DNA from: Candidatus Nanohalarchaeota archaeon QJJ-7
GTDB taxonomy: Archaea; Nanohalarchaeota; Nanosalinia; Nanosalinales; Nanohalalkaliarchaeaceae
DNA: 50,501 nucleotides
Direction of reading: 5' to 3'
NCBI GenBank assembly: GCA_022865215.1
Contig: JALIDP010000003.1
Coordinates: 1 to 50,501 of the forward strand
Below the pieces are notes generated by a model, which was not told the DNA's origin, searched no databases, and worked only from the letters and a program-made list of their open reading frames with translations. The position numbers and the translations under genes were made by a program. Positions 3,922 to 50,501 of this stretch are shown piece after piece. Numbering within the stretch: the first letter of the stretch is position 1; every line of letters begins with the position of its first letter.

Positions 3922-3968
3922 GGGTATCTACTAGGAAGTTATCAACTAGGTATTTATAACTTACGACT

Positions 3969-4006: not shown

Positions 4007-4029
4007 AAATAGAGGGAATAGAGCGGTAT

Positions 4030-8724: not shown

Positions 8725-8727
8725 TCT

Positions 8728-10182: not shown

Positions 10183-10230
10183 CTCCTCAAGCTTATCTTC
10201 ACCATTATCGTTATCTGCGATCTAGACCAC

Positions 10231-10995: not shown

Positions 10996-11053
10996 TACAG
11001 GAACCCCTTCTACGAAGAAAGTTGTGTTGCTTTCCTTAAGTAGTTTGAGGCGT

Positions 11054-27233: not shown

Positions 27234-28490
27234 ATGGATCGCGGAGATGTCCTCGTCGGGACGGGCCTGATCGCAATAATGCTGTTCATACTCCTCTCAT
27301 CTCCAGGCCCCCTTACCGGTTTTCTTACGTTTCAACCCTCTACAACTGTATCTGTAGAGAACGACACTAGCATCAAAATCAGCTATTTCCAGTTCGACCA
27401 GATAATTAACCGGGGAAACTCGACGGATATTGACGTGGAGATTACCAACTCGGGAAGCAACACTATAGAGAACGTGAACTTCACAGTAAATATCTTCAAG
27501 AACGGTACAGCCCTCTGGAGCTACCCCTCCCGCCAAAAGACACTTGAGCCGGGCTCGTTCCTCTCTCAAAGCTTCATGCACACCCCACAGGACACAGGTC
27601 TTTACCGTATCAGACTCCGTATAGATGTAGAGAACAGCATCATAGTCACAGGGGCGCCGCTCCAGGTGAACGAGAGGCCGACGGACGAAGCCACCAACCG
27701 CACAGTCACCTTAACACGGAAGAAAATAGAATACATCTATCCGGAAGCGCCTGAAGAAGAGGCGCCGTCCCGTAGCTGGGATCTCCACGTTCCGGAGAAC
27801 ATAACCCTGGAGGACGGGAAGACGAGTACCTCCACCATAGGCGTTGAAAACACAGGAGAAGCTCCCCTGGAGAACGTTCGACTCCTGCTACAGGCTCCTG
27901 TGAACATAACAACCGATTACAGCCCCGAGATACTGTTCAGCGTCTCGCCTAATACCACGAAGAACTTTATGATAGAGTTCACCCCTGATGAAGGTTTGCA
28001 TGGAGAATATGACATCGGATCCACACTCCATTCCAAACGTTTCAGCCAGAAGAGCACTATCGATGCCGATGTCAGACCGGCATCCACCCTCAAAAATCTC
28101 CAGCAGGAGATAAAGAACCTTCGACTCGTCCTAGCGGATGCGAGGACCCGGACCGAGGTAGCCTCAGATAGAGGATCTGACGTTGAAAAAATCGAGAAAC
28201 TGCTGGACCAGGCCAATGAAAGCCTTGAAACAGCAAGTGACTCGGTAGATGAAACGGATATTGAAGGGGCTCGGGCGGCGATAGACACAGCACGAGAATC
28301 CCTGGACCGGGTCTACACGTTACTATTCCAGTTGCAGGGACACCAGATATCGGTAAGAGCACCCCTGATAAACCCGTTCTACATCTTCGTTGCGGTACTA
28401 TTGATAGGGATAGCTCTCCTACTGGTCATAGGGTATTATTACCTGCACGAAAAACATAAACAGAGGCCGGAACTCCTGAGAGGAGAATAG
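27234..28490 (+). CDS. Surface protein: N-terminal anchor, two CARDB/NEW3-like Ig domains, helical bundle, C-terminal TM
   Basis: ITNSGS and VENTGE motifs; N-x-S/T sequons; GSDVEKIEKLLDQA helices; C-terminal TM followed by a basic tail. Confidence 0.75.
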   Translation: MDRGDVLVGTGLIAIMLFILLSSPGPLTGFLTFQPSTTVSVENDTSIKISYFQFDQIINRGNSTDIDVEITNSGSNTIENVNFTVNIFKNGTALWSYPSRQKTLEPGSFLSQSFMHTPQDTGLYRIRLRIDVENSIIVTGAPLQVNERPTDEATNRTVTLTRKKIEYIYPEAPEEEAPSRSWDLHVPENITLEDGKTSTSTIGVENTGEAPLENVRLLLQAPVNITTDYSPEILFSVSPNTTKNFMIEFTPDEGLHGEYDIGSTLHSKRFSQKSTIDADVRPASTLKNLQQEIKNLRLVLADARTRTEVASDRGSDVEKIEKLLDQANESLETASDSVDETDIEGARAAIDTARESLDRVYTLLFQLQGHQISVRAPLINPFYIFVAVLLIGIALLLVIGYYYLHEKHKQRPELLRGE

Positions 28491-28493
28491 GAT

Positions 28494-28745
28494 ATGGGAC
28501 TGATAAGACCGTTCAAATACACGAACTCAGAGGGGGAGACCTACTTCCTCCACAAGTCGGAGAAAGGTGACAGAACCAACTACTACTTCTCCAAGAATCC
28601 AGAAGGATCGCTGCGCTCCCGTCCAAGCGGGTTCAAGGTGAAGGAGAACCCTCACTCCCACATGCCTTACCTCAAACGTGGCAGGGGAGGTATCCTGGGA
28701 AGTATAATGGAGCTTCTGGGGATGTCCACAGAATCCGGGACCTAG
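28494..28745 (+). CDS. Small basic conserved hypothetical protein
   Basis: YTNS-G-TY-LH…YYFSK…P-G-V-ENP…P-LK pattern; 3 bp after the upstream gene. Confidence 0.7.
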   Translation: MGLIRPFKYTNSEGETYFLHKSEKGDRTNYYFSKNPEGSLRSRPSGFKVKENPHSHMPYLKRGRGGILGSIMELLGMSTESGT

Positions 28746-31204
28746 TCTGCACCTATCTGGTTCCTGATATGGGAAAAAGTCCTGATAATTCTTTCTCTCT
28801 CCACATCATCGATATCAGTAGATGTAGTAGTTACCTCCACAGGATTCTGCTGACTCTCCCCCCCTATCTCCTCCTTTATGTATGATACCGTCTGGGTGAG
28901 GTCCTCTCTTTCCTCTGGAGCCCTGCGACGGAACACAACAGCCACTACCGCTGCCGCCTGTACAACCAGGATCAGGAATATAATTTTGTTCAAGAGATTA
29001 TCTCCTATAAGAACCTCTCCAGAAGGGATATCTATGCTGGGTAACGCTCCTTTGAGGGGGTCGCCTCGCGAAGCCACCATCCCTGTGGGGGAAACCGTGC
29101 TGTTCTCCACCGGATCTACCGTTATACCGAAAGCGTACGACTTCCTGTTACCGTCGTGAACGAACACCGGTTCTGCAGTATATGTGTCCTCAGATACGTT
29201 AGGAGATATCTCAAGCTCCAACAGGACCTCTCGGCTCTGGTTCATCTCGATCGGTGACGTGTCGTATTCCAGGTCCTTTATGAAAGGGACATCATCCTCG
29301 ATGACCTCGAAATCCCGGATAGTGGTGAAACCGGTGTTACTTACATACATAGAGATATTCCGTTCTTCTCCCGCATTAGCGCTTACTTTATCCGGGGCTG
29401 TTATGCTTATACTGCTCGGGCGTTCCACCTCGATATCAAAAGATACATCCCCACGGCTGTATGGTTCTTTCGACGCCTCCAGAGTCAGCGAGTGGCTTCC
29501 CTCAGTGTCTGGAGAGGGAACACTCAGGTTGAAGATGCCCTGATCATCCGTTCTCATCTGGTCGACCACACTTCCAGAACGTATTAGGCTTACTGAGGCA
29601 TTGAATACAGAGTTCTCATCCTCATCCCGGACCGTGCCCTGCACCTGAACTGTATCATCGGGATCGTATACCTCTTCCCCAACAGAATACCGGACATCCA
29701 GATTTTCCCGAACTCCTATCGCGTAAGCCCCTTCCCCTTCATCAACGAACAATGCCTCACTTCCCACGTAATTGAACTCAGCTTCCACATTATCCCATGA
29801 ACCCCAGCATTCACCGCTCTCCATATTCCATCCCGTGCATTGGAGGACTTCCATATCCCTCGGATTATCTATATTCTCGGTGCTGTAGCCGAGCGAGAAA
29901 CTCCTGGATTCTGAATCGAGGGCGCTCATATATGCGTAAAGACCTGCCAGCTTCATCCCCGGAACTTCCTCAAGGGACGAGTAGAACTGGTACCTGATAG
30001 GGCCGTCCCAACTATCCACATCCACATCCTCCAGGGAGATACTTGCCGGGAAAGTTTCATGCGGGAATTCCAGTTCCACGTTATACGTTCCTGGGACGAT
30101 AGAAGATGTGTAATCCCCTTTCGAATCTATCTTCCTGACCTCCTTTCCATCGTCCAGAAACCGGAGCACAAAAGGTAACGCATCATCATCCTCTCCACGG
30201 AACTCGCCCTCCAAACGGGCAGGATACTTTATCTTTACCGTCTCAGAGGCCTGGAAATCCTCCCGGGAGAACTCTATATCGAGATCGTAGTTCCCCCTCG
30301 ACATGTTCGGGAGGAAAACGGAGAATGTTGATGCCCCGTCCCTGGAAGTCTCCTTCACAGAGACGTTGTCCAGATCGTCCCCATCGAGCGAGAAATCAAT
30401 ATCGTCTTCAACGACTTCGATACTCTTCCCCCTGTTTGCAGCCTCTACATCAACCTCTACCGCTTTTCCGTCGAAAATTGTCGTATCGGATACAGTTGCA
30501 TCGAACTGAAGACGCTCTTCAACTTTAATCTCTCTCGATAATGACTCTGTAGTTCCATTATGATACGCCTTTAAAGTCGGTTCGTAGTTCCCCGGCTCAG
30601 AAGGCATCTTCATAGACATCTTCCATTCGTTATCATTGCTATTGTAGCCTTCAATCAAATCTCTGGTCTCTCCACCGATCGATACAGTAAAATTAACATC
30701 TTCACCTATATCGATATCCGAATCTCCTACACCCTTTAAGACGCTAAAATACAGTTCCTCTTCCTGCTCTGTATAATAAACATCCTTCTCCAATCCCTGT
30801 ATCAAATCTGTCTTCAGGACTTCAACACTGAATTTCGATGATTTGAAATCAGTGGTTTCGTTAGTGCAACCTACGAAGAATGAGTAGTCCCCTGCAGAGA
30901 AATCATCCAATTCTTCCCAAAAATCTCGTACATTTTCCCCGTCTATGAAGTATTCCGCATTGGTTTCATCCTCAGCAATAAGTGAGAGAGAATCCTTGCT
31001 ATCTCTAGAAAAACCATCATGTGATATGTTCTGGACATAAACCTCATATGTCCCGGAAGTTGGCCCGCAGGTAGTTTCTATACGGAAATCCTGATCATTC
31101 CAGATTGTTTGAGAAGGTTCCACTGATACATCTGATACTGTCACAGCTGCTCCTAAAGTAGAGAAAAAAATACATATCCCCATAAAAAGGGCTGCACGCT
31201 TCAT
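28742..31204 (-). CDS. Multi-Ig-domain surface protein (about 820 aa) with C-terminal TM
   Basis: Signal peptide MKRAALF (ATGA overlap with minD); beta-rich repeats; C-x2-W-x6-C-x3-W motif; TM near aa 745. Confidence 0.8.
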   Translation of the reverse strand: MKRAALFMGICIFFSTLGAAVTVSDVSVEPSQTIWNDQDFRIETTCGPTSGTYEVYVQNISHDGFSRDSKDSLSLIAEDETNAEYFIDGENVRDFWEELDDFSAGDYSFFVGCTNETTDFKSSKFSVEVLKTDLIQGLEKDVYYTEQEEELYFSVLKGVGDSDIDIGEDVNFTVSIGGETRDLIEGYNSNDNEWKMSMKMPSEPGNYEPTLKAYHNGTTESLSREIKVEERLQFDATVSDTTIFDGKAVEVDVEAANRGKSIEVVEDDIDFSLDGDDLDNVSVKETSRDGASTFSVFLPNMSRGNYDLDIEFSREDFQASETVKIKYPARLEGEFRGEDDDALPFVLRFLDDGKEVRKIDSKGDYTSSIVPGTYNVELEFPHETFPASISLEDVDVDSWDGPIRYQFYSSLEEVPGMKLAGLYAYMSALDSESRSFSLGYSTENIDNPRDMEVLQCTGWNMESGECWGSWDNVEAEFNYVGSEALFVDEGEGAYAIGVRENLDVRYSVGEEVYDPDDTVQVQGTVRDEDENSVFNASVSLIRSGSVVDQMRTDDQGIFNLSVPSPDTEGSHSLTLEASKEPYSRGDVSFDIEVERPSSISITAPDKVSANAGEERNISMYVSNTGFTTIRDFEVIEDDVPFIKDLEYDTSPIEMNQSREVLLELEISPNVSEDTYTAEPVFVHDGNRKSYAFGITVDPVENSTVSPTGMVASRGDPLKGALPSIDIPSGEVLIGDNLLNKIIFLILVVQAAAVVAVVFRRRAPEEREDLTQTVSYIKEEIGGESQQNPVEVTTTSTDIDDVERERIIRTFSHIRNQIGAD

Positions 31205-32229
31205 GGAAGCCAACCCTTGATCTTCTCCGCAAGCGTCTCCTCGTAGGGATAACCTGTAATATCGGACGCTATGTTCTTGAACTCCCGCGAGGGCTTGATG
31301 TATGGTTTGCGAGAGACAAGGGGCTCGTTCTCAAGTATGCTGCGCTGTACATGGTTATGTTTTGGGATCACCCCTATTACAGGTATATCAAGCACTTTCT
31401 CCACCTCCTGGATCGAAAGGTGGTCCTTGGGGGAATCGTACATGTTTACAACCACCCCGATGACTGACTTCCCTTTCTCCCTAGCCTCACGGTACAGGCG
31501 GTAGGTATCCGAAAGCGATGGAATCTCTGGGGTAGTGACGAAAAGGAGTTCATCACAGTTCTCAACCACCCTTTCCACCGGCCTCTCGTATCCCGGAGGA
31601 GAATCGATAAGCACCGTGTATTCTGCAGGAATCTTGCCTAGTGCCTCTTGTATATCGCCGTCGAACTTCTCCGTAGCGAGTGATGTCGGGATAACTCTAA
31701 GTCCCGAATCCTTGTCGATCTGCATCGCCGACATAATATGGACATCCTGTTCGACCACTTGCTGGAGGGACGTAGGAGTAGTGTGTATACCCAGATGTAT
31801 CCCCAGGTTGGGCATCTCTGCATCCGCGTCCATCACTATGACTTTCTCACCGAACTCCATCAACGCCACACCGAGATTGAGCGTCACAACAGTCTTCCCT
31901 ACTCCGCCTTTACCGGAGACTATCCCGATGGTCCGGGGTTTGCTCAGTTCCTTGACTTCTTCCTCCACAGAGCTATCCACATCTTCCCTGGAAACCTCAC
32001 CCGATACATCCTCTCCCGATATCGCCTTTTCACCGCGTTCCCGTCCCTCTGCAAGTATACAAACACTGGACCTTCCAACCTTATGGGTATTTATAGCGCC
32101 CTGCTCGTCCATCCTCTCTATCTCCTTCGATATCTGGTACTCCTCCTCATCCAGCTGCCTCGCTATCTCCGATATGGACCTCGGCTTCTCCTCCAGAGAA
32201 TCAAGAATACGCTCCTGGATGTCACTCAT
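31201..32229 (-). CDS. minD: MinD/ParA-family ATPase with N-terminal winged HTH
   Basis: SGKGGVGKT, DAD-PNL, IDSPPG and VTTPE; C-terminal amphipathic helix LAEKIKGWL; N-terminal ILDSL…SISEIARQL…G-I…KVGRS. Confidence 0.85.
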   Translation of the reverse strand: MSDIQERILDSLEEKPRSISEIARQLDEEEYQISKEIERMDEQGAINTHKVGRSSVCILAEGRERGEKAISGEDVSGEVSREDVDSSVEEEVKELSKPRTIGIVSGKGGVGKTVVTLNLGVALMEFGEKVIVMDADAEMPNLGIHLGIHTTPTSLQQVVEQDVHIMSAMQIDKDSGLRVIPTSLATEKFDGDIQEALGKIPAEYTVLIDSPPGYERPVERVVENCDELLFVTTPEIPSLSDTYRLYREAREKGKSVIGVVVNMYDSPKDHLSIQEVEKVLDIPVIGVIPKHNHVQRSILENEPLVSRKPYIKPSREFKNIASDITGYPYEETLAEKIKGWLP

Positions 32230-32262
32230 GTGCTAAAGTACGTTCTGCCCTTATTTATGTTT

Positions 32263-32276
32263 TTTTACATGTAAAA
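32263..32276. promoter_or_regulatory. Perfect 14-bp palindrome TTTTACATGTAAAA next to the putative TATA box of HTH-minD
   Basis: Self-complementary; ATAAATAA on the minus strand at 32251-32258, about 25 bp before ATG 32229. Confidence 0.5.
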
Positions 32277-33029: not shown

Positions 33030-33033
33030 CCTA

Positions 33034-33459
33034 TCACGTTAATCCATGTCTCTCGATGAACAGGTCTCCCCTGTAGTAGCCCTGGGAAGCGTTTTCAGGT
33101 TCGAACACCAGGGAAATGTTCCTAGCACCTCCTGATTCTATCCGGACGCTTTCATCAGGATCAATCGAGATATACTTGCTTATATTCCCCTCCACACTGA
33201 ACCGCATCTCCACAGGACCATCACCAGGATTCTCGAGCTCCAGCTGGCGTTCCGAACTCATCGCACCTCCTGGAAGAGTCCCGAAACCTATAGGCCTTTC
33301 ATCGGCAGCGAGCCCAACAGTAAGGTCTCCTCCAGAACCGTTTACCGTGCCTTCAAGGACGTAACTCTCCTCCATACGATAGCTTTCCCCTGCAATAAAC
33401 ATCCCCGCCGCAACCAGAGCTATCAGAACGGGGATCGCCACCAGTATACGTTTATCCAT
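33034..33459 (-). CDS. Small membrane-anchored Ig-like protein
   Basis: N-terminal TM; FG-LP-G…LEN…GNI…G-Y-G-L. Confidence 0.7.
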   Translation of the reverse strand: MDKRILVAIPVLIALVAAGMFIAGESYRMEESYVLEGTVNGSGGDLTVGLAADERPIGFGTLPGGAMSSERQLELENPGDGPVEMRFSVEGNISKYISIDPDESVRIESGGARNISLVFEPENASQGYYRGDLFIERHGLT

Positions 33460-34372
33460 CCTGAACCACCTTCCACACCACGAAGCTCATAACGGCCAGA
33501 AGGAATAAGAGGATTACGGTGGAAATCGGCATCCCTTTCTCCTCTCTATCACGGCGCTCCACCGCCCTTACAGATTCTTTCAACGAGATATCGGCTGTTT
33601 CACTGACTTCCCCCGTACCGTAGTCCGCAGCCACCCGGGCCTTGAACTCCTCCCTCCCTGCCGGGACCGACGTGGAGAACTTTCGGGTCTCACCCGGCGG
33701 GACCACCTTTTCATCCCTGCCGATATCCTCGGTACTGTTCTCTCCTTCAATCTTGAACCGTGTCTCTACCTCCATCGTAGCAGTCCCATTGTTGTAGAAA
33801 GAGGCCACCAGCTTCTCATCAGCCAACCTGGTCGACCCCGGTCTTAAACCTATAATTTTCCCTGATCTTGTAACCTCCCCTGGAACCCTGAATATCACGG
33901 GGAAGGAAGACGTTGATAGAAGGCTTAAACTACCACTGCCCTCTATATCAGGATCAGGGGTTATCAGGAGGACATGGTACCCCGGCTCCATATCGCCAGG
34001 GATATTGACAAGGAACTTGACATCCTTCCATCGAACGAATTCAGAACCTGCAGCACTCAGTTCCTGGTCCTGTTCTTCTATAGCCCCCTCACCTCTCAGC
34101 ATCTCCACACATTCAGCACACGACTGTGCGGAGAAGCTCCCTGACTTGGATGATTTGAACCGGTTGAAATCTCTTAATGAACCTCTCTCAGTCCTTATAT
34201 CTATCTCAACTTTCTCGGAGGAGAGCACACGGAAATCACCATAGAACGTTGATCCCGGATCCTGAACCCCTTCTTCAAGATGGGTAGGAGAAACAGCGAA
34301 CTGCAACGAGGCCCCTGCAGGCACCACCAAACCCAGTGCAGCGATTAACATAGCCAGGCGGACATCGAACAT
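33452..34372 (-). CDS. Surface protein with two Ig-like domains and C-terminal TM
   Basis: Signal peptide; AVSP, IP-D-EPG-H and NNGT motifs; C-terminal TM; abuts the giant gene. Confidence 0.75.
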   Translation of the reverse strand: MFDVRLAMLIAALGLVVPAGASLQFAVSPTHLEEGVQDPGSTFYGDFRVLSSEKVEIDIRTERGSLRDFNRFKSSKSGSFSAQSCAECVEMLRGEGAIEEQDQELSAAGSEFVRWKDVKFLVNIPGDMEPGYHVLLITPDPDIEGSGSLSLLSTSSFPVIFRVPGEVTRSGKIIGLRPGSTRLADEKLVASFYNNGTATMEVETRFKIEGENSTEDIGRDEKVVPPGETRKFSTSVPAGREEFKARVAADYGTGEVSETADISLKESVRAVERRDREEKGMPISTVILLFLLAVMSFVVWKVVQDG

Positions 34373-40357: not shown

Positions 40358-40526
40358 GATTACCCTCCGGAATGGCGCAGCTGTTTGATATATCTCTCGC
40401 CTTGTATAAAAGGGTTCTGGACCTTTCTAAGCCGTTAATCGGCGGAAATTCTGATAGAACCCCTTCAACATCATCTCCACAACCTATTTAATTGGGAAGA
40501 AGTCTATATTCAGGATAGGAGTTACC

Positions 40527-41645: not shown

Positions 41646-41690
41646 CACAATCGTAAGACTATTTAATATCCAGCCCCTCTTAACCCTTGA

Positions 41691-42464
41691 ATGGCAGAAG
41701 AAACTATAGCCATCCTTTCAGGTAAGGGTGGGGTCGGCAAGACTTCTATAAGTGCCAACCTTGGGAGTATACTCTCCCATGTGTTCGACAAAGAGGTTGT
41801 GATAATAGATACCGATGTCACGACCTCCCATCTGGGAGTTCATATGGGTTTCCACTACAACCCGGCCACGATAACCTCTGTTCTCCAGGGAGAGCACGAC
41901 CCGGAAGAGAGCGTCTATGAACACGAGACAGGGGTAAAAGTCGTGCCTGGAGCGCTGAACTACGACGAGGTGAAAGAGGTGGACGTCTACAATATAGGCG
42001 AGATAATAGATACTGTCGCAGAAGGAGCCGATTACGCTATCCTCGACTGTAGCCCCGGTCTGGACCGGGAGGCGAGCGCAGCTCTCCGGGCTTCGGACCA
42101 GGCGCTCTACATCGCCCGCCCTTCCTTCACCTCGGTTATAGACGTTGTAAGGACAGATTCCCTGCTTGAGGATCTCGAAACCCCTGCCATGGGGGTGGTC
42201 CTCAACATGGTCCGGGGCAAGAAACACGAGATCGGTCACGATGAGGTGGAGAGCTTCACCGGGATAGATGTCATCGGTAGCATCCCCTACGACGATGCGA
42301 TGGAGGAGAGCGCTGCCCAGGGAACACCTCTGGCCATTTACGAACCTGATTCTCCTGCAAGCAGGGCTATAGAGGACCTTGCCGTGGAGATAATAGGGGG
42401 AGAATCCGAGAAGAAGAGGAGTGGACTTGTCCGTAAGATCCGGGAGTTATTCCCCCGTCTTTGA
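41691..42464 (+). CDS. minD: MinD-family ATPase
   Basis: SGKGGVGKT, IDTD, DCSPGL, GVVLN, IPYD and SPAS; C-terminal amphipathic helix GLVRKIRELF. Confidence 0.9.
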   Translation: MAEETIAILSGKGGVGKTSISANLGSILSHVFDKEVVIIDTDVTTSHLGVHMGFHYNPATITSVLQGEHDPEESVYEHETGVKVVPGALNYDEVKEVDVYNIGEIIDTVAEGADYAILDCSPGLDREASAALRASDQALYIARPSFTSVIDVVRTDSLLEDLETPAMGVVLNMVRGKKHEIGHDEVESFTGIDVIGSIPYDDAMEESAAQGTPLAIYEPDSPASRAIEDLAVEIIGGESEKKRSGLVRKIRELFPRL

Positions 42465-43730
42465 TTCCAGCCAGTCTACGAGCGTCGTCCTGCCCTTTCC
42501 TTCCCTTTCAGCCTCCAGGAGCTCCTGCACATCCACGTTCTGCTCCTTGACCGCCTCCTTCACCTCCTCTACCGACTGGTCAAGGATATCATAGTTATCC
42601 TCATCATCTACTTCCTCATTTTCCTCTTCTGAACCATTAGTATCCTCCTCTTCTCCTTCATCTTCTCTGAGTTGCTCCTCTTCAATCTCCGCACCCGCGG
42701 CCTCTTCCAACTTCTGCCACTCCTCAACCAGCTGCTCTTTGATATCCTCCAGCTTCTCCTCGTTAGCCTCCTTTATCTTCTCGTACTCGCTGGTAGATAT
42801 CTGACCCTCCTCGTACTGCTCCTCAAGGTCCTCCAGGAAGCTTTCGATATCTTCTCTCTCCTTCCTCAACTCGTTTATCGGCTCGGGAAGACTCATATCT
42901 GCCAGGGGCGCGATCTCCTCGTACTCGCTCATCTGGCTCTCTATCTCGTGGATGCGCTCCCTCACCTTGTTCAGTTCTGACTCTTCGACCGCGTCATCGA
43001 CCTCTATGGAGAGATCATCCAGCTTCCTGAACATGTCCGAGGTCTTCTCCTGTATACTGTCCACCTGGGCCTTGTAGGTGCTGTACTCGTCCAGTTTCTT
43101 GTTTATCTTCACGTTTATCTTCTCGGACTTGTTCGCCAATCTCTCGATATACTCTTGAGCCTCGCGTATCTGGCTCAGCTTCTCCTCGAACTCGTTGTTC
43201 AGGTCTATAAGGTTCTCCATGCTTCCAAGATCGTTCAGTGTCTCCTGAACATCTTTGGATGTCTGTTCCACCCTCTGTAGTTTCTCCTCCACCTTCTGTA
43301 TGTCGGCCGAGTTCTCCTCTATAGAGGCCTGGAGACTGTCTATCTTCTTCTCGAACTCCTGGGGCTCTATCTCCTCCACCTGGTCCTTCAGCAGGTCCAC
43401 ATCGGATTCGATATCGTTCACCGTCGCCTCCTGACCATGGACCATCTCCCTTATCTCCCCTATGCTCTGGGACATGTTCTGCATCCTGTCCTCCACGGCA
43501 TTCTCCTCCTCCTTGAGCATATCGACCGTCGATTTGAGCCGCTCGAGATCTATCTCCACAGAACCTACATCTCCCGCACCGGATGAACCGCCGTCCGGCT
43601 CTGGATCGCTCTCCTCAGGAGAGGAATCCTCCTCTCCACCGTCATCCCCGCCACCCACCTGACTGGCCAGCTTCTTGATGTTCTCCTCGTTTATCTCCTC
43701 TACCTCTTCCGAACCATCTTCATCCGGCAT
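42447..43730 (-). CDS. Long coiled-coil protein with SHOCT-like hairpin and C-terminal helical module
   Basis: Heptads around aa 60-275; LEEQYEEGQISTSEYEKIK; YDIL…AEREGKGRTTLVDWL. Confidence 0.8.
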   Translation of the reverse strand: MPDEDGSEEVEEINEENIKKLASQVGGGDDGGEEDSSPEESDPEPDGGSSGAGDVGSVEIDLERLKSTVDMLKEEENAVEDRMQNMSQSIGEIREMVHGQEATVNDIESDVDLLKDQVEEIEPQEFEKKIDSLQASIEENSADIQKVEEKLQRVEQTSKDVQETLNDLGSMENLIDLNNEFEEKLSQIREAQEYIERLANKSEKINVKINKKLDEYSTYKAQVDSIQEKTSDMFRKLDDLSIEVDDAVEESELNKVRERIHEIESQMSEYEEIAPLADMSLPEPINELRKEREDIESFLEDLEEQYEEGQISTSEYEKIKEANEEKLEDIKEQLVEEWQKLEEAAGAEIEEEQLREDEGEEEDTNGSEEENEEVDDEDNYDILDQSVEEVKEAVKEQNVDVQELLEAEREGKGRTTLVDWLESKTGE

Positions 43731-43732
43731 CG

Positions 43733-44023
43733 CTAGGACAACAGCTCCTTGTTGGTCTTCTTCGCTTCATGGTAAGAGTTTTCAGATATACTGGCGGTCC
43801 GGTAAGCCTCCTCCAGGTGAGAAAGCAGGCTCTCTACCCTCTCCTCATCGTTTATTATCTCCTGACGTCTCTTCTTCTCCGATAGCCACTCCAGCAGTTC
43901 CTCGCGTTCCCGGTTCTGTTTCTCAACCTCCATCATCATCTCTATAAGCTCAGGTTCCTCAATCTCAGCTTCCTGGATTTTCTCCATCTCGTTCTCCAGT
44001 ATCTTCTGGACGCGTTCTTCCAT
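43733..44023 (-). CDS. Small two-module helical protein (about 96 aa)
   Basis: Likely start MEERVQ, with CTTAAG about 25 bp upstream; EVEKQNREREELLEWL plus LEEAYRTASISENSY. Confidence 0.7.
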   Translation of the reverse strand: MEERVQKILENEMEKIQEAEIEEPELIEMMMEVEKQNREREELLEWLSEKKRRQEIINDEERVESLLSHLEEAYRTASISENSYHEAKKTNKELLS

Positions 44024-44088
44024 ACGGATAGGTTCGCAGCCCTTGCTTAAGTTGTTTGTGCCCGGAGAGGCTGAATCCATCCCAAGAA

Positions 44089-47000
44089 TCAGGTCATGTT
44101 ATCGATCCGGGTCTCCAAGGACTCGACGTACGTCTCGGCCGACGTGTAGTTCGCCGTTTTCAGTTTGTCTTCCGCCAGATCGAGCTCGGTCTCGACATCG
44201 TAGGTATCAACACCCTCTTCCTTGAGATCCTCTATCTCCTCTCTCAGATCGTCTATCCTCTCCTTGATCTCCAGGTACCTGTCCAGCTCCTCGTCGTCAA
44301 GCGCGAACGGGCTGTGCAGGGGCGGTCTGAAGTCGATGAACCATGGACGGCCCTGGTTGTACTCCGGATTGTGGAACAGACCTGTACCGATCTCCAGTCC
44401 TGGAACTCTCTCCGCATACTTCTTACCGTGCTTGGAGCGTACACGTCTCACGTCTCCGCTGTACTTGGTCCTGAGCTGGATCTCGTTCGCGATGTTCGCC
44501 CTCAGCTCGCCCCGGAAGTCGGTCAGCACCTGCGAGATGAGGAACACTCCTATACCCCACTTCCTGAACTCCCGGGCCGCCTGCTCCAGCTTCACGTAAC
44601 CTCCCTTCCCGCCGTACTTCGGAAGAAGCCTGTGGACCTCGTCGTAAATGACCAGGCTCTGCAGTTCTGTGGTCTCGTCCAGCGGCCCCTCGAATATCTT
44701 GTCGATGGTGGAACGCACGAAGTCATCCAGTTCTCCACCTTCAAGGTCACCGATCTCGAAGACCGTTATCTCTCCATCCCTCTGCAGTGCTTCCCAGACA
44801 TCGATCTCCTGGTCAGGGTCGTCCACCTGTACGATAGTGGTCTTGAATCCTGTCGGGGCATCCTCCGGATCCAGATCGTAGTCAGGGAACATCGACGTAA
44901 GTTCATCGAGCTCGTTCGGCTTCAGCATCCCTGTCCACTGATCCGTCGGGTCGAACACTACTATCGATACATCTCCCCGCTTCAGAAGCTGCTCTGACAC
45001 TACCTGGGCAGATACCGACTTGCCGGAACCGGTACCTCCTGCCGCGATGCTGTGGACCTTGAGCTGTTCTATGTCCATGTAGGCAGGTACGTCTCTCTCG
45101 GCGATGTTTCCAACCCTTATAGTGTCCTCTCCCTCCTGGGGCAGCTTGCTCATGTCGAGCGGCGCCACGTACCGCTCCTGTGCCTTCTTCTTGGACCGGT
45201 AGTAGTTCACCCAGCGGACACCGAGTATCAGTAGCGGCAGCAGGACGAACAGTACTATGTAGGTTATCGGGTTGAAGGCCGCCATCCTTAGCATCACCAG
45301 GGGCAGGGGTAGAGAGCTTACCTCGAAGCTCTCCGCCGCAGACGCCTCCTTCTGGAAGTTAGCGTAAGAGGCGTTCGCTGAAACGACGTATCGGCCTTCA
45401 GGCACGTCTTCAGGGATCGACATCCTCTCCCGTTTTGTCTCTGTATCGTTGACCGCCACCGTCCTGGATATCTGGGTCACCACGTTATCCGGCTCGTTGA
45501 GCGGATGGACTTGGAAGTCCATGGTTATATCTCTTACAGAGACGGTCTGGCCCCTGTTCTTCAGGGTGTACTCGAAGGTGAAGTTTCCTCCAGGTTCTGT
45601 AGCTATGGACAGTGGATTGACAAGGACGTCCAGAAGTGCCTCCTCCTCAGGAACTACCTCCACGCTGACAGGAAGTCTGTGCGTTACGTCCTCCGAGTCC
45701 ACGAGTACGCTGCCGGTGTAGGTCCCGACACCGGTGTCCTCTGTCGCGGTACCACGGATCAGTATCGTCCTTGTCTCTAGGGGCGGAATCGTGATACTGT
45801 TCTGCTGGAGGGTCAGGACGTTGAACACCGACCCCTGCAGGGAGATGCTTGCGCTCTTCTCGGCATCCTCATTATTGCTTATAGACGCCGAGAATGTCTT
45901 TGTCTGTCCCGGATTGAGCTGTAGATTTACGAGCGAGGACCTTACCTGGAGTGGGACCTGACCTGAAACATCTGGACCAGGTTCTGTCGGCTCGGTGGGC
46001 TCGGTAGGTTCTACAGGAGGTATCTCGATCTCGTCCCCTGCTCCGCCTCCACCGCCTCCCGTACCTTCACCTTCACCTGTACCGCCGCCTCCACCATCGC
46101 CCCCACCACCTCCACCAGCTCCTCCTTCTCCACCTCCTATATCTCCTCCACCACCTACAACGTCTTCACAGTCGTTAGGTGATACGTCGTTGCTCTCCCC
46201 GAATTCGGAGTCGCAGGCTCCGTCTCCCACGAAGTAGGGTCCGATAGCATATGCCACACCATCTGATATATCCTCATCATAGCTGTATATCCAGCCCTTA
46301 TTGTCGGTCAGGGAAGCATCACTGACCTCTGTCCACGAGGAGTTGCACTGGGTGGTGCCCTCGCTCGCCGGCACCCATGAGTCACACCTGAACATTCGGG
46401 AGTTGTCGGTGTCGAAATCTGAATCTTCCGGTATCCGGACGAACACATGTGTATCGTTCCCAGAGAGGTTGGACTGCATGTAGACAGCGTTACTCGTCCC
46501 CGGTCCGCCAGCCTTCCCGACAGCTATATCTCCGACTCCCACCGGATCTATGATCTCTTCCGATACGGAGATATCTGTCTGCCGGAAGTAGCTGTTGAAG
46601 AACTGGTACTCGAAGTCATAGGTCCTCTGTCTCACTGTCGAGTTGTATTCCCCTGTGGAGGCGTTGGAACTGAAGTTCTGCAGGACCGTGCCTGTAGGAG
46701 GGTCCTTGAACAGGAACTGGCTATCTATAGGCTCAGGAGGATCGTTTTCCACATCCTCAAGGTCCCTCGCAACTCCGCTTATCCCTATCTTCCGGAATAT
46801 ACTGAAGTCTCCGTCTCCTGTCTGGCAGTTACTGGAGATATCGCAGGCTGTCAGGTTGATCTCATATGTACCTATATCGTCCGTGTCTGTGAAGTTGTGC
46901 TGGAAACTGTACCTATCCCTGTAGATATCCATAAGGGCCGGACTGAAGCTGGAAGTCCCGTTCGGTGTCAATATACTTCCCTCTACCGAGGAGGTATTCA

Positions 47001-50000
47001 ACACGCCTGTCTCTGTCACGTTGAACTCTGCGGTCACCTTTGAACCCTCAGAGACCTCTATAGGTAGCGATACATCGACAACAGGAGAGGAATTATCCGC
47101 CATAACCACTGAATCAGAGGTCACATCTGTCCTGACATGGTGCCTGGACCGGTCGTCCACTCCAGTGTGATCTGCTGTAACATTCAGGTCGTACGCGTAA
47201 GCCTCGGTCCCGTTGGCCTCCAGAGTAAGGTTCCATAGGTTCTCTGAATCGTTGAAAGCCTTCTCCACTACTTCCAGATTACGGGTCTCGGTCTCGTTCT
47301 GAAGGGCTGCATCGAAAGCGACGTTATCTCCGATATGCCTTAAATCGTCTCCTCTACCGAAGCTCACGTTCACTCTTGCCGAGAAGTTATCGCCTGTCTG
47401 GAGACCCGTCCTCCTATCACTAGCCCGGGGTTCGGTGATATCGGTGAAGAACGGTACCGCAAGGAGTTCCAGATCAGTTGTCTCTGTCCTGGTAGCGTTG
47501 GGATGGTCTGTGCTCAAAGTTCCAGTGAACGTTGTATAGTCATCCACCATTGGCACGCTCACAGTGACGTTCGTCCGGTTTACTCCGTTGAACGGTAGAT
47601 AGAAGGATGGATGCGGTATATCGATATACTGGGATATATTACCGGTCTGGGAGGCATCCACCCTTATACCATCGTTCCCGGTGTTCTCCATTTCTACGGT
47701 CTCCATAACTTTCTCCTCACCTGACAGCACAGCTTCCGAAACCGATCCCGGGCTCTGCACCCAGGATATGTTTATGGGTACGTTCACCGTCAGGGTATCT
47801 CTCCCAACTTCCTCTCCCTCCGATCTGAACGAGAGGTTGCCAGTGTAGATATCCTTCTTGATACCCTGAGGAACTTCTATCTCGAGATCTATTTCCCGGG
47901 TATCAGCAAGGGAAAGGTTGAACCCTTCAGGTTCCTCTGTCACAGTGAAGTTCTCGCATGGAACCCCTGAATCACATGTTACAGACACGTTCGAAACATT
48001 GACGTTCCCTGTCGATTCGATATCGAACGATACAGTGTCATTGGCGCCTTCTTCTATCTTTGCGGTCGGGGAGGAAACCGCATCCAGCCTCCTGTTCGGT
48101 TCCACCTCTACAGTGACCTCGGAGAGATTGTTCCCACGGGAGTCCAGCAGGTCGAGCCATTCAGTCGTCAGATTGAACGAATGGTTACCCGGGGATGTAC
48201 CGGATTCTACTGAAAGCTCGATGGAGGCTTCCTCAGAGGCGTGCCCCAGCATATCCCCTATACTGATATCGGTCACGTTGGTGTCGAGTACCGGGGATTC
48301 CTCCTCGACGGTCAGGTTAGTTGAATTGGTCCGGGAGGGCCCGGTGTTGTTGACCAGCGGCCTGATGGATATATTCTGGTCGGAGATAATCGTTACGTTG
48401 TCTGCACTGACCGTTCCCAGAACTGGTTCTATCTCGGTCGTTCCTTCGGCACTCAGGTTTATCGGGTCGGTACACCTATCTGATGTCAGTCCTGTAGTCG
48501 GGTTGGTACTGTTGGCGCATATCCTGAGGGCGTGTGTGCCGTTCACTGTGGCGCTGTAATCATCGGTGTAGGTTGAATTGACGGTGTTGTTCATCATCGA
48601 TACTGAGGTGCTGTTACCCCAGCTCCTGTTGACCGGCCGGGTGACGTTTATCCATGCCCTGTCTACATCGAAGTTATCCGTTATCTCAGCAGATATGTTG
48701 ACCTCTCCATGGAGCACCTCGAACCGCTGTGGATCCACCTCCACATCAGTGATGGATGGTCCGACATCCGTGATGTTCATCTTCAGCGAAGTAACCCTCT
48801 CCGGAGGTTCTCCGATAGTCACATTCCTCTTGATTATGTCCACAGAGTACAGCCCTTCTGTCACATCCTCCGGCACACTGTATTCGACCGTGACATTGCG
48901 GCTGGCTCCTGGAGCGAGGTCGTATGCGTCTGTACCTGGAGCACCGAACGGGTATGATTCTGTGAAGGCGGTACCGTTACCGTTCTCGAATATCTGCAGC
49001 GGTATCTTCACGTTACCGATGTTGCTGGTCGATATGTTCCCGATGAACCCTGATTCTCCGGGCTGGATCAGAAGTTTTCCGAACGTGGAGGGATCATGGT
49101 TCCAGGACCCGTTAACAGGCACTGTAGCGTTGAGGAGGATATCATCATCTCCTGCATTATCAGTTTCCACCCTCAGCTTTGTCCAGTAGTTCCCTGGATC
49201 CTGGTAGGATGGAACATCTATCTGCACGTCCGAGGAGAAGTTATCGCCTGGAGACAGTGTGCCCTGCTCGTCCGGGAACACTGTTAGAGAGCAGTTGGGA
49301 CAGTCAGAGAACAGGTTGCCTCCCACGGTGTCTATCTCGAGCTCCTGCAGGTCCTCATTACCGTAAGATACTGTGGTCGTAGTACCAAGAACGGTTTCGA
49401 GCCCGTGCGGGGCGGTAGCGTTTATCGGGTCATCCCACGGCACCTCTTCCTCGTTGACCTCTCTGGCCTCTATCCTCGGCTGGGGATTGGAAGATACTGT
49501 TATCTCGGAATCGTTCCTCTGAGTATCGACCGTCCTGTCCGGGTTCCTCCACACGGCATGTACAGATTTTTCTATTATCTGAGGTAATGTTGCTTCCGGC
49601 ACATTAACCGTGAAAGTCCAGTTACATGAATCTCCGGACTCTATCGAACCGCATTCCTTCCGTGTATCATTGTAATACACGGTATCTATCGGGCTCTCGG
49701 AATGGCTGAGGTTTAATACATAGGCAGTGGCGTTTCCGGTATTCGTAAATCTAGCTTGAGCGGTGAAGTTATAACCCGATTCCTGGGTTATACCTGTTGC
49801 AGTCTCCGCCTGCGGTTCCAGCCCCACGTCTATCGAGACCTGTCCGAATACTTCGAGGTAAGACGCGAACTGCCTGGCCGTGTTCTTCTCCGGTTTCTTG
49901 TCCTGGGCGTATACCTCTATAGAGTGGTTCCCACCGGTACTTGGAGTGTAATTGGCGGCGTAAACAGCTCTTTCACCGGAGCCGAAGTCCCTGACCGGCG

Positions 50001-50501
50001 TCATATTATCCATCTTCACTATGCGGTGGGTCCCGTTCTCCAGAGACACGTTGGCCCATACCTCTCTTATACCGTAGTTATCGGTCACGTTGGCCCGGAT
50101 CTCTGTTTCATCTGTGTTCGCCTCGAGGTCCCGGTCGGGCTCTGCGGTGGCGTTCCTTATGACCGGAGCCTCGATATCCTTCACCTGGTACCTGAAACGG
50201 GTGACCGGTTCCTCTGCAGTGTAGAACTGGGTATCATTGTCCGGTATCTCCAGCTCGAACGTGATATTTCCTTTCTGCTGTGGTTCGAACAGAGTGCTGT
50301 TCAGTCCGGATGAGTTGGTCATGAACGAGTCTATCAACGTGTAACTATCCTCGTCTTCCCACCGGGAGGAGAGGTTGAACCTGTATCCTGAGATACCTCC
50401 TCCTGAGTCAAGGTCCTCCACCTTCCCTACCACGGGAAACTCGCCCGGATAGGGTAGAACTGACTCGTTTTCAGGATTCACTATCCGGGCTCCTGAAAGA
50501 C
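44089..50501 (-). CDS. Giant (>2130 aa) Ig-repeat surface protein fused via TM to a cytoplasmic HerA/FtsK-superfamily (DUF87-like) ATPase; 5'-truncated by window edge
   Basis: Frame stays open to base 50501 (…LSGARIVNPEN). TM at about 45225-45310. ATPase motifs: H-GGTGSGKS, VVFDP, LVIYDEVHR, REFRKWGIG, LISQ and N-x4-I-LR. Confidence 0.9.
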   Translation of the reverse strand, partial: LSGARIVNPENESVLPYPGEFPVVGKVEDLDSGGGISGYRFNLSSRWEDEDSYTLIDSFMTNSSGLNSTLFEPQQKGNITFELEIPDNDTQFYTAEEPVTRFRYQVKDIEAPVIRNATAEPDRDLEANTDETEIRANVTDNYGIREVWANVSLENGTHRIVKMDNMTPVRDFGSGERAVYAANYTPSTGGNHSIEVYAQDKKPEKNTARQFASYLEVFGQVSIDVGLEPQAETATGITQESGYNFTAQARFTNTGNATAYVLNLSHSESPIDTVYYNDTRKECGSIESGDSCNWTFTVNVPEATLPQIIEKSVHAVWRNPDRTVDTQRNDSEITVSSNPQPRIEAREVNEEEVPWDDPINATAPHGLETVLGTTTTVSYGNEDLQELEIDTVGGNLFSDCPNCSLTVFPDEQGTLSPGDNFSSDVQIDVPSYQDPGNYWTKLRVETDNAGDDDILLNATVPVNGSWNHDPSTFGKLLIQPGESGFIGNISTSNIGNVKIPLQIFENGNGTAFTESYPFGAPGTDAYDLAPGASRNVTVEYSVPEDVTEGLYSVDIIKRNVTIGEPPERVTSLKMNITDVGPSITDVEVDPQRFEVLHGEVNISAEITDNFDVDRAWINVTRPVNRSWGNSTSVSMMNNTVNSTYTDDYSATVNGTHALRICANSTNPTTGLTSDRCTDPINLSAEGTTEIEPVLGTVSADNVTIISDQNISIRPLVNNTGPSRTNSTNLTVEEESPVLDTNVTDISIGDMLGHASEEASIELSVESGTSPGNHSFNLTTEWLDLLDSRGNNLSEVTVEVEPNRRLDAVSSPTAKIEEGANDTVSFDIESTGNVNVSNVSVTCDSGVPCENFTVTEEPEGFNLSLADTREIDLEIEVPQGIKKDIYTGNLSFRSEGEEVGRDTLTVNVPINISWVQSPGSVSEAVLSGEEKVMETVEMENTGNDGIRVDASQTGNISQYIDIPHPSFYLPFNGVNRTNVTVSVPMVDDYTTFTGTLSTDHPNATRTETTDLELLAVPFFTDITEPRASDRRTGLQTGDNFSARVNVSFGRGDDLRHIGDNVAFDAALQNETETRNLEVVEKAFNDSENLWNLTLEANGTEAYAYDLNVTADHTGVDDRSRHHVRTDVTSDSVVMADNSSPVVDVSLPIEVSEGSKVTAEFNVTETGVLNTSSVEGSILTPNGTSSFSPALMDIYRDRYSFQHNFTDTDDIGTYEINLTACDISSNCQTGDGDFSIFRKIGISGVARDLEDVENDPPEPIDSQFLFKDPPTGTVLQNFSSNASTGEYNSTVRQRTYDFEYQFFNSYFRQTDISVSEEIIDPVGVGDIAVGKAGGPGTSNAVYMQSNLSGNDTHVFVRIPEDSDFDTDNSRMFRCDSWVPASEGTTQCNSSWTEVSDASLTDNKGWIYSYDEDISDGVAYAIGPYFVGDGACDSEFGESNDVSPNDCEDVVGGGGDIGGGEGGAGGGGGGDGGGGGTGEGEGTGGGGGGAGDEIEIPPVEPTEPTEPTEPGPDVSGQVPLQVRSSLVNLQLNPGQTKTFSASISNNEDAEKSASISLQGSVFNVLTLQQNSITIPPLETRTILIRGTATEDTGVGTYTGSVLVDSEDVTHRLPVSVEVVPEEEALLDVLVNPLSIATEPGGNFTFEYTLKNRGQTVSVRDITMDFQVHPLNEPDNVVTQISRTVAVNDTETKRERMSIPEDVPEGRYVVSANASYANFQKEASAAESFEVSSLPLPLVMLRMAAFNPITYIVLFVLLPLLILGVRWVNYYRSKKKAQERYVAPLDMSKLPQEGEDTIRVGNIAERDVPAYMDIEQLKVHSIAAGGTGSGKSVSAQVVSEQLLKRGDVSIVVFDPTDQWTGMLKPNELDELTSMFPDYDLDPEDAPTGFKTTIVQVDDPDQEIDVWEALQRDGEITVFEIGDLEGGELDDFVRSTIDKIFEGPLDETTELQSLVIYDEVHRLLPKYGGKGGYVKLEQAAREFRKWGIGVFLISQVLTDFRGELRANIANEIQLRTKYSGDVRRVRSKHGKKYAERVPGLEIGTGLFHNPEYNQGRPWFIDFRPPLHSPFALDDEELDRYLEIKERIDDLREEIEDLKEEGVDTYDVETELDLAEDKLKTANYTSAETYVESLETRIDNMT
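45978..46155 (-). repeat. Gly-rich linker and (EPT)n repeat inside the giant protein
   Basis: GGGGDIGGGEGGAGGGGGGDGGGGGTGEGEGTGGGGGGAG followed by VEPTEPTEPTEP. Confidence 0.85.

Follow-up and report, generated by a model that had tools for sequence, protein, structure and literature searches.

The 50,501-nucleotide (nt) contig JALIDP010000003.1 of the tiny halophilic symbiont Candidatus Nanohalarchaeota archaeon QJJ-7 (hereafter, in its whole length, the window) carries, from position 27234 to its end, 13 open reading frames (ORFs) for surface proteins, coiled-coil proteins and MinD-type ATPases, which a sequence-only reading had taken for one undescribed, envelope-spanning and MinD-positioned apparatus of 23 kb. 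Our analysis suggests, with a probability that we put at about one half, that the locus combines two conserved and separable modules, both belonging to a membrane-anchored system on the surface of DPANN archaea; from these parts we infer a complex, its positioning, its substrate and its role towards a host. The first module would be a SPEARE giant, i.e. a huge immunoglobulin (Ig)-like glycoprotein ectodomain followed by one transmembrane helix and, on the cytoplasmic side, a most likely ring-forming ATPase of the HerA/FtsK class, together with the coiled-coil protein cc427. The second would be an operon of single-pass Ig-like membrane proteins (A306, B141, C250 and D823, with GIANT and E418 as accessories), in which one or two MinD-type ATPases and the small basic protein F83 are embedded. 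The recurrence of this gene set in a second phylum probably reflects a real cell-surface machine.

The means by which DPANN archaea adhere to their hosts and obtain material from them are a central open question, for which only SPEARE giants had until now been proposed, as single genes. What is new here is a candidate conserved coiled-coil partner for SPEARE, a separate operon of ~6-10 genes that combines Ig-like membrane proteins with embedded MinDs and is conserved in at least two phyla, and the fact that both modules stand together in fixed order in a sample of Aenigmatarchaeota genomes. These genes provide a defined parts list for experiments, the cluster being present in closed genomes of the window's phylum, for members of which co-cultures exist; if our interpretation is true, they would include the first archaeal case of MinD-type ATPases that specifically serve a surface assembly other than a filament. 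The locus is thus undescribed in part only: the giant ATPase is of a published type, and the MinD-linked cluster is apparently undescribed, since searches of the full texts of published papers, taken apart from supplements such as the supporting information tables of Hamm et al. 2019 and the S10 Fig of PMC13705601, showed no description of this cluster, of its linkage to SPEARE or of a SPEARE-associated coiled-coil gene.

The window is an entire contig (C28) of a 753-kb genome in 34 contigs, which is 78% complete and has a strongly acidic proteome; this genome was placed in a phylum group of 70 genomes, and the contigs matching two of them bear Nanohaloarchaea labels. All 13 ORFs were found at the positions first listed, and the tight coupling noted for them was borne out, gaps and overlaps within runs ranging from -18 to +47 nt. 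Genes are named here by protein length (E418, F83, C250, B141, A306, cc372, MinD257, cc427 and D823, the 820-aa protein of the sequence-only reading), GIANT being the 1,994-aa protein. According to Pfam, NCBIfam and hydropathy, the surface proteins combine signal peptides or N-terminal transmembrane helices with Ig-like domains (CARDB, NPCBM_assoc, CarboxypepD_reg, MG2) and C-terminal transmembrane helices; in E418, D823, A306 and GIANT, hydropathy displays both a signal peptide or N-terminal anchor and a C-terminal transmembrane helix.

A SPEARE-type giant and its coiled-coil partner

The last ORF of the window (44089..50501, minus strand) encodes more than 2,136 aa of a SPEARE-type giant surface protein whose N-terminus is missing, the 5' end of the gene being cut by the contig end. 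The locus is therefore longer than the 23 kb first given to it, and its synteny with genomes of the same family also reaches leftward, to position 24559. The giant consists of an N-glycosylation-rich Ig-like ectodomain, a transmembrane helix, a cytoplasmic P-loop ATPase of the HerA/FtsK class and a C-terminal coiled coil. More specifically, the ectodomain covers more than 1,740 aa, with Ig domains of the NPCBM_assoc type and dense NxS/T sites, the one transmembrane helix spans residues 1741-1759 of the partial ORF, and the last 377 aa (44089-45222, minus strand), in which no further transmembrane helix is seen, form the ATPase domain. This domain matches Pfam DUF87 with 37.6 bits (cut-off 23.2), HerA_C and NPCBM_assoc being also matched on the giant, and gives weak NCBIfam matches to HerA, TraD, TraB, TraC and CedD, as well as a weak Pfam match to T4SS-DNA_transf (E 0.0078, below the cut-off). 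Walker motifs A and B are intact, residues G62, G65, G67, K68, D194 and E195 being invariant across 21 sequences. An AlphaFold model built from 21 sequences (predicted local distance difference test (pLDDT) 84.8) finds its best matches in the PDB in hexameric HerA translocases (8wiv, 9x1m, 4d2i; E ~1e-10, template modelling score ~0.5), followed by TcpA, the packaging ATPase B204 of Sulfolobus turreted icosahedral virus (STIV), FtsK and VirB4, with a Foldseek probability of 1.00 for HerA, FtsK and TcpA; HerA ranks above VirB4 in sequence and fold searches alike.

The cytoplasmic domain of the giant is a HerA/FtsK-superfamily ATPase, and the earlier statement that no secretion ATPase is present has to be dropped, the domain being of the HerA/FtsK/VirB4 class. 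It shares the fold and the Walker motifs with the translocases of this superfamily (HerA-NurA, FtsK, TcpA/VirD4, STIV B204, VirB4) and, like FtsK and the coupling proteins, it is tethered to the membrane. Unlike them, however, it is fused behind an ectodomain of more than 1,700 aa and a single transmembrane helix, and neither a HAS barrel, a NurA partner, an FtsK gamma domain nor a VirB4 N-domain was detected in the window's ATPase. We did not file it as a member of a type IV secretion system (T4SS) because neither a VirB4 N-domain nor any other T4SS family, such as a TraG/VirD4 all-alpha domain, a channel component or a relaxase, was detected in the window ORFs.

At E<=1e-30, the same ATPase domain is found in 20 of 41 relatives, the best matches lying at the C-terminal ends of ORFs that reach 9,433 aa, and in 27 of the 70 genomes of the window's phylum. 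Over ~370 aa, it is 39-75% identical to the C-termini of giant ORFs of relatives; identity amounts to 39-48% for other families of its own phylum, whose ORFs have 2,258-9,433 aa, and to 49-59% for six Aenigmatarchaeota-type copies (52-59% for five of them). Judged by its architecture, and compared with the giants of relatives rather than with named published accessions, the window's giant is of the published SPEARE kind. As presented in passages of Hamm et al. 2019 (PMC6642349) and of Reva et al. 2023 (PMC10266531), SPEARE has a giant Ig-like or adhesin exterior, one transmembrane helix close to the C-terminal end, a P-loop ATPase conserved on the cytoplasmic side and, at its end, a coiled coil, just as observed here. 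The architecture is that published by Hamm et al.; Reva et al., in the passages concerned, interpret it instead as an Ig-like giant adhesin whose ATPase is VirB4/TraG-like and which ends in a coiled coil, and dispute the laminin-G, serine protease and toxin-like modules of the former paper. No such module was detected by Pfam in the 2,136 aa present, the N-terminal part being missing from the contig. The window's gene moreover adjoins a MinD cluster, of which the passages of the two papers make no mention. Note also that in G013, G017, G032, G036, G042 and G052 a second protein of 623-677 aa with the same ATPase domain adjoins the giant; the window differs from the first four of these loci in that no such short paralog lies downstream of SPEARE. 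As for size, the SPEARE ATPases of Aenigmatarchaeota type in seven genomes end stop-free frames of 13,242-14,526 aa (G167:C3:21552-22640, G221:C1:56747-57841, G135:C2, G170:C2, G211:C7, G103:C2 and G098:C1), well beyond the 9,409 aa given in a passage of PMC10266531 for the largest protein among sequenced nanohaloarchaea.

Downstream of the giant, the minus strand encodes, after 8 nt, a small acidic helical protein called the adaptor (43733..44080; 115 or 96 aa, counted from the first ATG or from an internal Met, respectively) and, after a further 2 nt, cc427 (42447..43730), an acidic cytoplasmic coiled-coil protein that recurs as downstream partner of SPEARE ATPases. The convergent MinD257 gene overlaps cc427 by 18 nt and lies 45 nt behind that of another acidic coiled-coil protein, cc372 (40527..41645, plus strand). 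Both coiled-coil proteins are very acidic (30-33% D+E), lack a transmembrane helix and give only weak matches, of coiled-coil type, in Pfam and NCBIfam. Using tblastn, a cc427-like acidic coiled coil was found directly after the SPEARE ATPase or its short paralog in 13/15 loci of other families, as opposed to 0 matches in the same 15 loci for cc372, a control of equally acidic composition. In addition, phmmer gave E values of 3.5e-48 to 4.3e-42 for cc427 in L126, L084, L132 and L111, where its counterpart adjoins the second module. These comparisons indicate that SPEARE has a conserved, dedicated acidic coiled-coil partner, cc427. The other coiled coil, cc372, has no detectable homolog in the two syntenic relatives, none in L039, L041 or L055, and a single marginal match in 80 loci. 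The adaptor, which belongs to no Pfam or NCBIfam family, has homologs only in two genomes of the window's family (G005 and G007, at the same position) and is absent between ATPase and coiled coil in L084 and L132.

An operon of Ig-like membrane proteins with embedded MinD ATPases

The second module is organized around A306 (33452..34372, minus strand), the first gene of the conserved core operon, which encodes a signal peptide, two Ig-like domains and a C-terminal transmembrane helix. An alignment of 20 A306 proteins, which shows invariant motifs, was used to scan one genome per prokaryote species, a scan that depended on one peptide motif, so that absence elsewhere does not follow from it. 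The scan gave 80 loci of metagenome-assembled genomes (MAGs), labeled Aenigmatarchaeota (30), Nanohaloarchaeota (11), Euryarchaeota (1) or without phylum label (38). When 1,253 genes from 94 loci were clustered into families, a canonical order emerged: X308 (on the opposite strand), A306, B141, C250, an optional winged helix-turn-helix (wHTH) gene, MinD and D823, with GIANT, E418, F83, Y213, c16_401 and c18_158 as accessory families. B141 lies within 2 genes after A306 in 71/73 loci, C250 within 3 genes after it in 65/66 and D823 within 6 genes of it in 36/42. A MinD gene is found within 6 genes in 31 of the 42 loci with enough flank (33 if 3 upstream genes are also counted); by our estimate, a random 20-kb window would hold MinD ~6-8% of the time, given about 3 MinD genes per 0.75-1 Mb. 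Thirty pairs of same-strand neighbors lead from MinD to D823, many of them overlapping by 4 nt, and among the genomes G000-G040 of the window's phylum, 16 of the 18 that are A306-positive have MinD within 8 kb. Since this gene order is found again in dozens of distant genomes, the arrangement is far beyond chance.

Closer to the window, the order from the adaptor to D823, followed by E418 and two further genes, is kept at 30-65% identity in G005 and G007, which belong to another genus of the same family. In another family of the phylum, relatives of A306 adjoin B141-, C250- and D823-like genes and a third MinD paralog, and the order E418, F83, second MinD recurs in Aenigmatarchaeota. The proposed check of neighborhood conservation across Nanohaloarchaeota and Aenigmatarchaeota thus came out positive for most of the locus.

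The A306 profile was then applied to the 70 genomes of the window's phylum and to an even sample of 151 Aenigmatarchaeota genomes, the same profiles being used in both. A306 is present in 34 of the former (13 of 28 high-quality ones) and in 54 of the latter; the profile search recovers it in G015, which a single-sequence search had missed, and finds none in three closed, 96-98% complete genomes (G017, G019 and G027) and a marginal match only in G023. This patchiness is more in keeping with an accessory module for host interaction than with an essential or core envelope component. At E<=1e-30, the profile retrieves 219 clusters from a set of 1.84 billion representatives, which points to a small family confined to certain lineages. 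A quick tree of A306 displays two deep clades with mixed phylum labels; the window's A306 falls in the clade dominated by Aenigmatarchaeota labels, the only one regularly joined to GIANT and SPEARE. The closeness of the window to Aenigmatarchaeota versions may stem from an old transfer or from a retained ancestral state.

In the window, GIANT (34373..40357, minus strand; 1,994 aa) precedes A306 with a gap of 0 nt. It carries an N-terminal transmembrane helix or signal peptide, Ig/MG-like repeats (five NPCBM_assoc and one MG2 in Pfam), a helical stretch just outside the transmembrane helix 1891-1909 and a cytoplasmic tail of 85 aa; its family, found in 18/94 loci, has a median length of 1,946 aa and the same pattern of N- and C-terminal transmembrane segments. 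A306 overlaps by 8 nt with B141 (33034..33459, minus strand; an N-terminal transmembrane anchor and one Ig-like domain, family in 85/94 loci), which is followed after 4 nt by C250 (32277..33029, minus strand; a secreted or anchored beta-rich protein, family in 84/94 loci) and, after another 47 nt, by HTH-MinD. The latter overlaps by 13 nt with D823 (28742..31213, minus strand; family in 63/94 loci), which comprises a signal peptide, a string of Ig/MG-like beta-sandwich domains, a transmembrane helix and a 60-aa cytoplasmic tail. On the plus strand, E418 (27234..28490; family in 23/94 loci) has an N-terminal transmembrane helix or signal peptide, CARDB/NPCBM_assoc Ig-like domains and a C-terminal transmembrane helix and resembles the C-terminal part of GIANT, which its profile matches at 3e-44. 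Behind it, after 3 nt, comes F83 (28494..28745; pI 9.7; family in 17/94 loci), a small basic cytoplasmic protein whose gene runs convergently into D823 with an overlap of 4 nt; F83 always adjoins E418, and in Aenigmatarchaeota the second MinD then follows. No named relative of F83 was found in Pfam, the ESM Atlas giving unnamed clusters only. Likewise, a Pfam scan of 37 members of accessory families assigned no family to B141, C250, X308, Y213, F83 or c16_401 and named only small wHTH genes, PqqD-like genes and one weak Peptidase_M50B-like match. Such small wHTH genes (IclR/HTH_11-like), together with a PqqD-like gene for ~90 aa, stand between X308 and A306 in several Aenigmatarchaeota loci (e.g. 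L095:9317-9874 and L122:9296-9826).

A306 belongs to no Pfam family. It is similar in layout to the DUF916/DUF3324 ("WxLIP") proteins of the WxL/Csc clusters of Firmicutes, which likewise have a signal peptide, two Ig-like domains and a C-terminal transmembrane anchor, and the ESM Atlas gives a WxLIP cluster feature (score 0.91) and DUF916-like models (template modelling score 0.47), which we regard as a lead only. In contrast to these clusters, A306 matches neither PF06030 nor PF11797 at E<=0.01, has no WxL or LPXTG partners and occurs in archaea. The model of D823 (pLDDT 81.5) displays Ig/MG-like sandwiches, a transmembrane helix at ~738-763 and two cytoplasmic helices that carry a conserved amphipathic motif common to many D823 tails. 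The beta-sandwich string resembles proteins of the alpha-2-macroglobulin (A2M)/complement type, with the A2M family as top Foldseek match (E ~1e-16) and weak Pfam MG2 matches in both D823 and GIANT, but the resemblance is at the level of repeated domains only: the model of D823 has no helical thioester domain, and only generic MG/Ig-domain arrays are matched in the PDB, with a global template modelling score of 0.12. Note that in the other nanohaloarchaeal family (L055-L062, L123, L134 and L140), D823 tails end in a C2H2-like zinc-finger motif instead, and that proteins downstream of some SPEARE genes (L029:371-3103, L032:53-2624) start with similar CxxC...H motifs; on this resemblance, the same small C2H2-like module appears in D823 and SPEARE-associated systems.

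Both MinDs of the window have the deviant Walker A motif (KGGxGK[ST]) and basic amphipathic C-termini. MinD257 (41691..42464, plus strand) is an archaeal MinD-type protein (TIGR01969, 212 bits; cut-off 201.75) of the second type mentioned above: its best matches are the F83-adjacent MinDs of L129, L086 and L102, and it forms its own clade with G005 and G007 in a quick tree. HTH-MinD (31201..32229, minus strand; 342 aa) is the in-operon MinD ATPase fused to a winged helix at ~7-61; it scores 186.8 bits against TIGR01969, below the cut-off, and groups weakly with in-cluster MinDs of other families (Shimodaira-Hasegawa-like approximate likelihood ratio 74, in a quick tree used as a hint only). 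Besides the window, G005, G007 and 6 other loci have this fusion, and in 10 loci the wHTH is a separate gene of 70-77 aa. Separate housekeeping MinD genes are kept elsewhere in each genome. General family scans detected no MinC, MinE or FtsZ-linked family among the window ORFs, the rest of the genome not having been searched for them.

MinD/ParA-family organizers such as FlhG, TadZ/CpaE and VirC1 serve flagella, Tad pili and T4SS substrates, respectively. The window's MinDs are similar to such organizers in being deviant Walker A ATPases that end in a basic amphipathic C-terminus and have their genes amid those of surface structures; they differ from the known ones in that their partners are single-pass Ig-like proteins for which Pfam has no model, and in that one of them carries a wHTH. 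In archaea, passages of PMC13705601 cite MinD4 of Haloferax volcanii as organizing archaella and chemosensory arrays (Nussbaum 2020) and place MinD-like ATPases in type IV filament loci; subsystem 4G of Thermoproteota, described there as a MinD-like ATPase with membrane accessory proteins and a multi-Ig adhesin, is the nearest published parallel within what these passages cover. Unlike type IV filament loci, the window contains no pilin, PilB/FlaI ATPase or platform protein; none of the locus proteins has a pilin-like N-terminus, and the T2SSE matches of the genome are on contigs C11, C18 and C9, outside the window.

The cluster has other neighbors elsewhere. In the other nanohaloarchaeal family (L055-L064 and about 10 loci of the scan, e.g. 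L055:3404-8012), its back-to-back neighbors are always MoxR (AAA_3), DUF58, a membrane protein with vWA and an acidic protein of ~520-560 aa; MoxR of the window's genome is on another contig, C8. In the same family (L057:1-4252), the MinD of the cluster has pilin-like genes and a gene for a vWA/GEVED protein of up to 960 aa at a distance of ~4 kb. In two loci with Aenigmatarchaeota labels (L108:1171-5286 and L142:5876-9938), the cluster comes directly after a multi-transmembrane protein of ~700 aa, in which 8 hydrophobic segments were scored for L108 and which in L142 alone weakly matches T2SSF, below the cut-off, and after four small proteins whose N-termini resemble those of pilins.

Linkage of the two modules and possible function

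In the Aenigmatarchaeota sample, A306 occurs in 54 genomes and SPEARE in 76, and both occur together in 42, compared to 27.2 expected. Sixteen genomes have the two on a single contig, and 12 of these 16 place them within 20 kb of each other, in a fixed order and direction that are those of the window. In L084 and L132, the SPEARE ATPase and a cc427-like gene lie right beside the cluster; in G070, G071 and G072, a SPEARE frame of 4,302-10,147 aa ends just upstream of a cc427-like gene, which is followed by c18_158, GIANT, X308 and A306. Altogether, the order SPEARE ATPase, cc427-like, (c18_158), GIANT, X308, A306 onward is common to these five loci, and the order of the window's family matches that of Aenigmatarchaeota genomes at just 24-59% protein identity. 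Furthermore, the profiles of D823, GIANT and B141 match the SPEARE ectodomain (3.8e-34, 5.9e-72 and 3.5e-11), which suggests that both modules share a toolkit of ectodomain families.

If these parts work together, the Ig-like proteins would build a surface assembly for contact with a host cell. The MinDs would bind the membrane via their basic amphipathic C-termini and, owing to these and to the deviant Walker A motif, could organize or localize the assembly from the cytoplasmic side, plausibly through the amphipathic motif of the D823 tail; a predicted complex of two HTH-MinD ATPase domains with ATP and Mg against this tail scored 0.24 (mark 0.32) in a run made without controls, which counts neither for nor against such a contact. 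Type Ia ParA carries an N-terminal wHTH, and the wHTH of the in-operon MinD may similarly add DNA binding, for autoregulation or for tethering to the nucleoid or DNA. Finally, the SPEARE ATPase would provide the energy for moving a polymer through the membrane of the symbiont at this place, with DNA as the best guess because the closest folds (HerA, TcpA, B204 and FtsK) pump DNA. MinD positioning, a motor role of the ATPase and host attachment, as put forward from the sequence, are putative roles. A bolder version, which we entertain only tentatively, is that of an unrecognized, ancient cell-contact organelle common to DPANN phyla, an envelope machine of a new kind unrelated to type IV filaments or type IV secretion, in which a lattice or stalk of single-pass Ig proteins would be held at one membrane site by two MinDs with their partners (wHTH and F83) and a docked SPEARE motor ring would carry host DNA or another polymer through the symbiont membrane.

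Several observations weigh against our interpretation. The 70 genomes of the window's own phylum show no co-occurrence of the modules: A306 is present in 34 and SPEARE in 27, both in 9, compared to 13.1 expected, which leaves 25 genomes with A306 alone and 18 with SPEARE alone. A distance of 44 kb separates the two in the closed genome G032 and one of 76 kb in the closed genome G013, so that either module can work alone and, given also the lack of co-occurrence, they are separable and form no obligate unit. Genomes of the same genus (G001-G003, 69-73% complete) show neither module. Within the cluster, 11 of the 42 loci with enough flank have no MinD within 6 genes; 38 of the 80 loci bear no phylum label, and the labels that NCBI gives to MAGs may be wrong. 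The counts overstate independence because the genomes are related, the completeness of MAGs is uncertain and the trees are quick trees. The fold match of the ATPase to HerA is moderate (template modelling score ~0.5), and VirB4, which is not a DNA pump, is matched as well. The claim of a single MinD-organized apparatus is accordingly upheld in part: GIANT, the small Ig proteins, HTH-MinD, D823, E418-F83 and the second MinD do form one conserved cluster, which stands downstream of SPEARE and its coiled coil in the Aenigmatarchaeota sample, but the link between the two modules fails in the window's own phylum.

The main alternative, which we consider possible though clearly less probable than even, is that two unrelated systems happen to be neighbors, namely a SPEARE adhesin/translocase and an independent MinD-organized envelope module, their adjacency being merely an inherited order. 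The missing co-occurrence in the window's phylum and the distances in G032 and G013 speak in its favor, as does the regular joining of only one of the two deep A306 clades to GIANT and SPEARE; the positive association in Aenigmatarchaeota, the 12 of 16 same-contig pairs within 20 kb, the maintenance of gene order at only 24-59% protein identity and the domain families shared by the ectodomains all argue against it. As regards the substrate, a passage of PMC10266531 proposes that the SPEARE ATPase is a VirB4/TraG-like T4SS motor injecting protein effectors into the host, in which case the membrane neighbors could be the channel and MinD a VirC1-like recruiter. The weak TraD, TraC and T4SS-DNA_transf matches and the presence of VirB4 and TcpA among the fold matches agree with this published interpretation. 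VirC1 is a T4SS factor of the ParA/MinD type, which would also fit. We nevertheless regard it as unlikely, given that the best sequence and fold matches are to HerA rather than VirB4, that the window yielded neither a VirB4 N-domain nor another T4SS family and that the second VirB4-like ATPase adjoining SPEARE in other families is missing downstream.

The second module might also be general envelope or S-layer scaffolding, its MinDs serving cell division or shape with no specific link to host contact. Archaeal S-layer glycoproteins resemble D823 in size and topology (~800 aa, a signal peptide and a C-terminal transmembrane helix), and the helical stalk before the transmembrane helix of GIANT points the same way. 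S-layer-like coats have moreover been reported on nanohaloarchaea. Such a role is difficult to reconcile with the patchiness of A306 (34/70 and 54/151 genomes in the two phyla, none in closed G017, G019 and G027) and with the separate housekeeping MinD genes, which makes this alternative quite improbable. An integrated mobile element, with the HTH-ParA/MinD genes as partition or regulatory genes, would account for the N-terminal wHTH, which recalls type Ia ParA, for the greater closeness of the window's proteins to Aenigmatarchaeota (ATPase 52-59%) than to other families of their own phylum (39-48%) and for the mixing of phylum labels in the A306 tree. It is hardly credible, however, in view of the MinD genes lying inside membrane-protein operons with overlapping stops and starts, of a GC content (0.48-0.56) like that of the rest of the contig and of proteins as fully acidic as the host proteome; nor were integrase, relaxase or replication genes or flanking repeats seen in the window.

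Flanking genes and other contigs

The leftward extension of the syntenic region comprises two genes in the same order as in G007:C17, encoding a 397-aa acidic HxlR-like wHTH protein (24559-25752, minus strand) and a 386-aa protein (26041-27201, plus strand); both are syntenic within the family only and were not found in the Aenigmatarchaeota loci. The 397-aa protein has a motif of ~48 aa in common with cc427 (48% identity, E 9e-12), which lies at the C-terminal end of cc427 (42447-42593) and ~35 aa before the end of the 397-aa protein (24667-24816). The motif recurs in the orthologs of G005, G007 and G004 and may be a docking module. The divergent promoter region between GIANT and cc372 (40358-40526) contains just short imperfect inverted repeats and no clear operator. 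Sequencing runs containing the stretch amount to 7 DNA runs from 2 studies, none being listed as RNA.

Contig C32 of the same genome (1-8881) carries together four accessory families missing from the window (c18_158, X308, c16_401 and Y213) and, directly after them, the first 1,075 aa of a giant whose ORF leaves the contig at its start (C32:1-3227). This fragment could be the missing 5' part of the window's SPEARE, an arrangement that would put cluster genes on both sides of SPEARE. Joining C32 to the window end is unproven, the sole link being a 27% Ig-repeat match to G007.

Finally, the other half of the window holds, on the minus strand between 4966 and 12190, six consecutive ORFs of 254-646 aa whose sole Pfam match is a weak Shr-like one; a neighboring CARDB-containing ORF (2122-2994) weakly matches the profile of the c14_553 family, and the ORFs around 2122-12190 may represent further surface genes.

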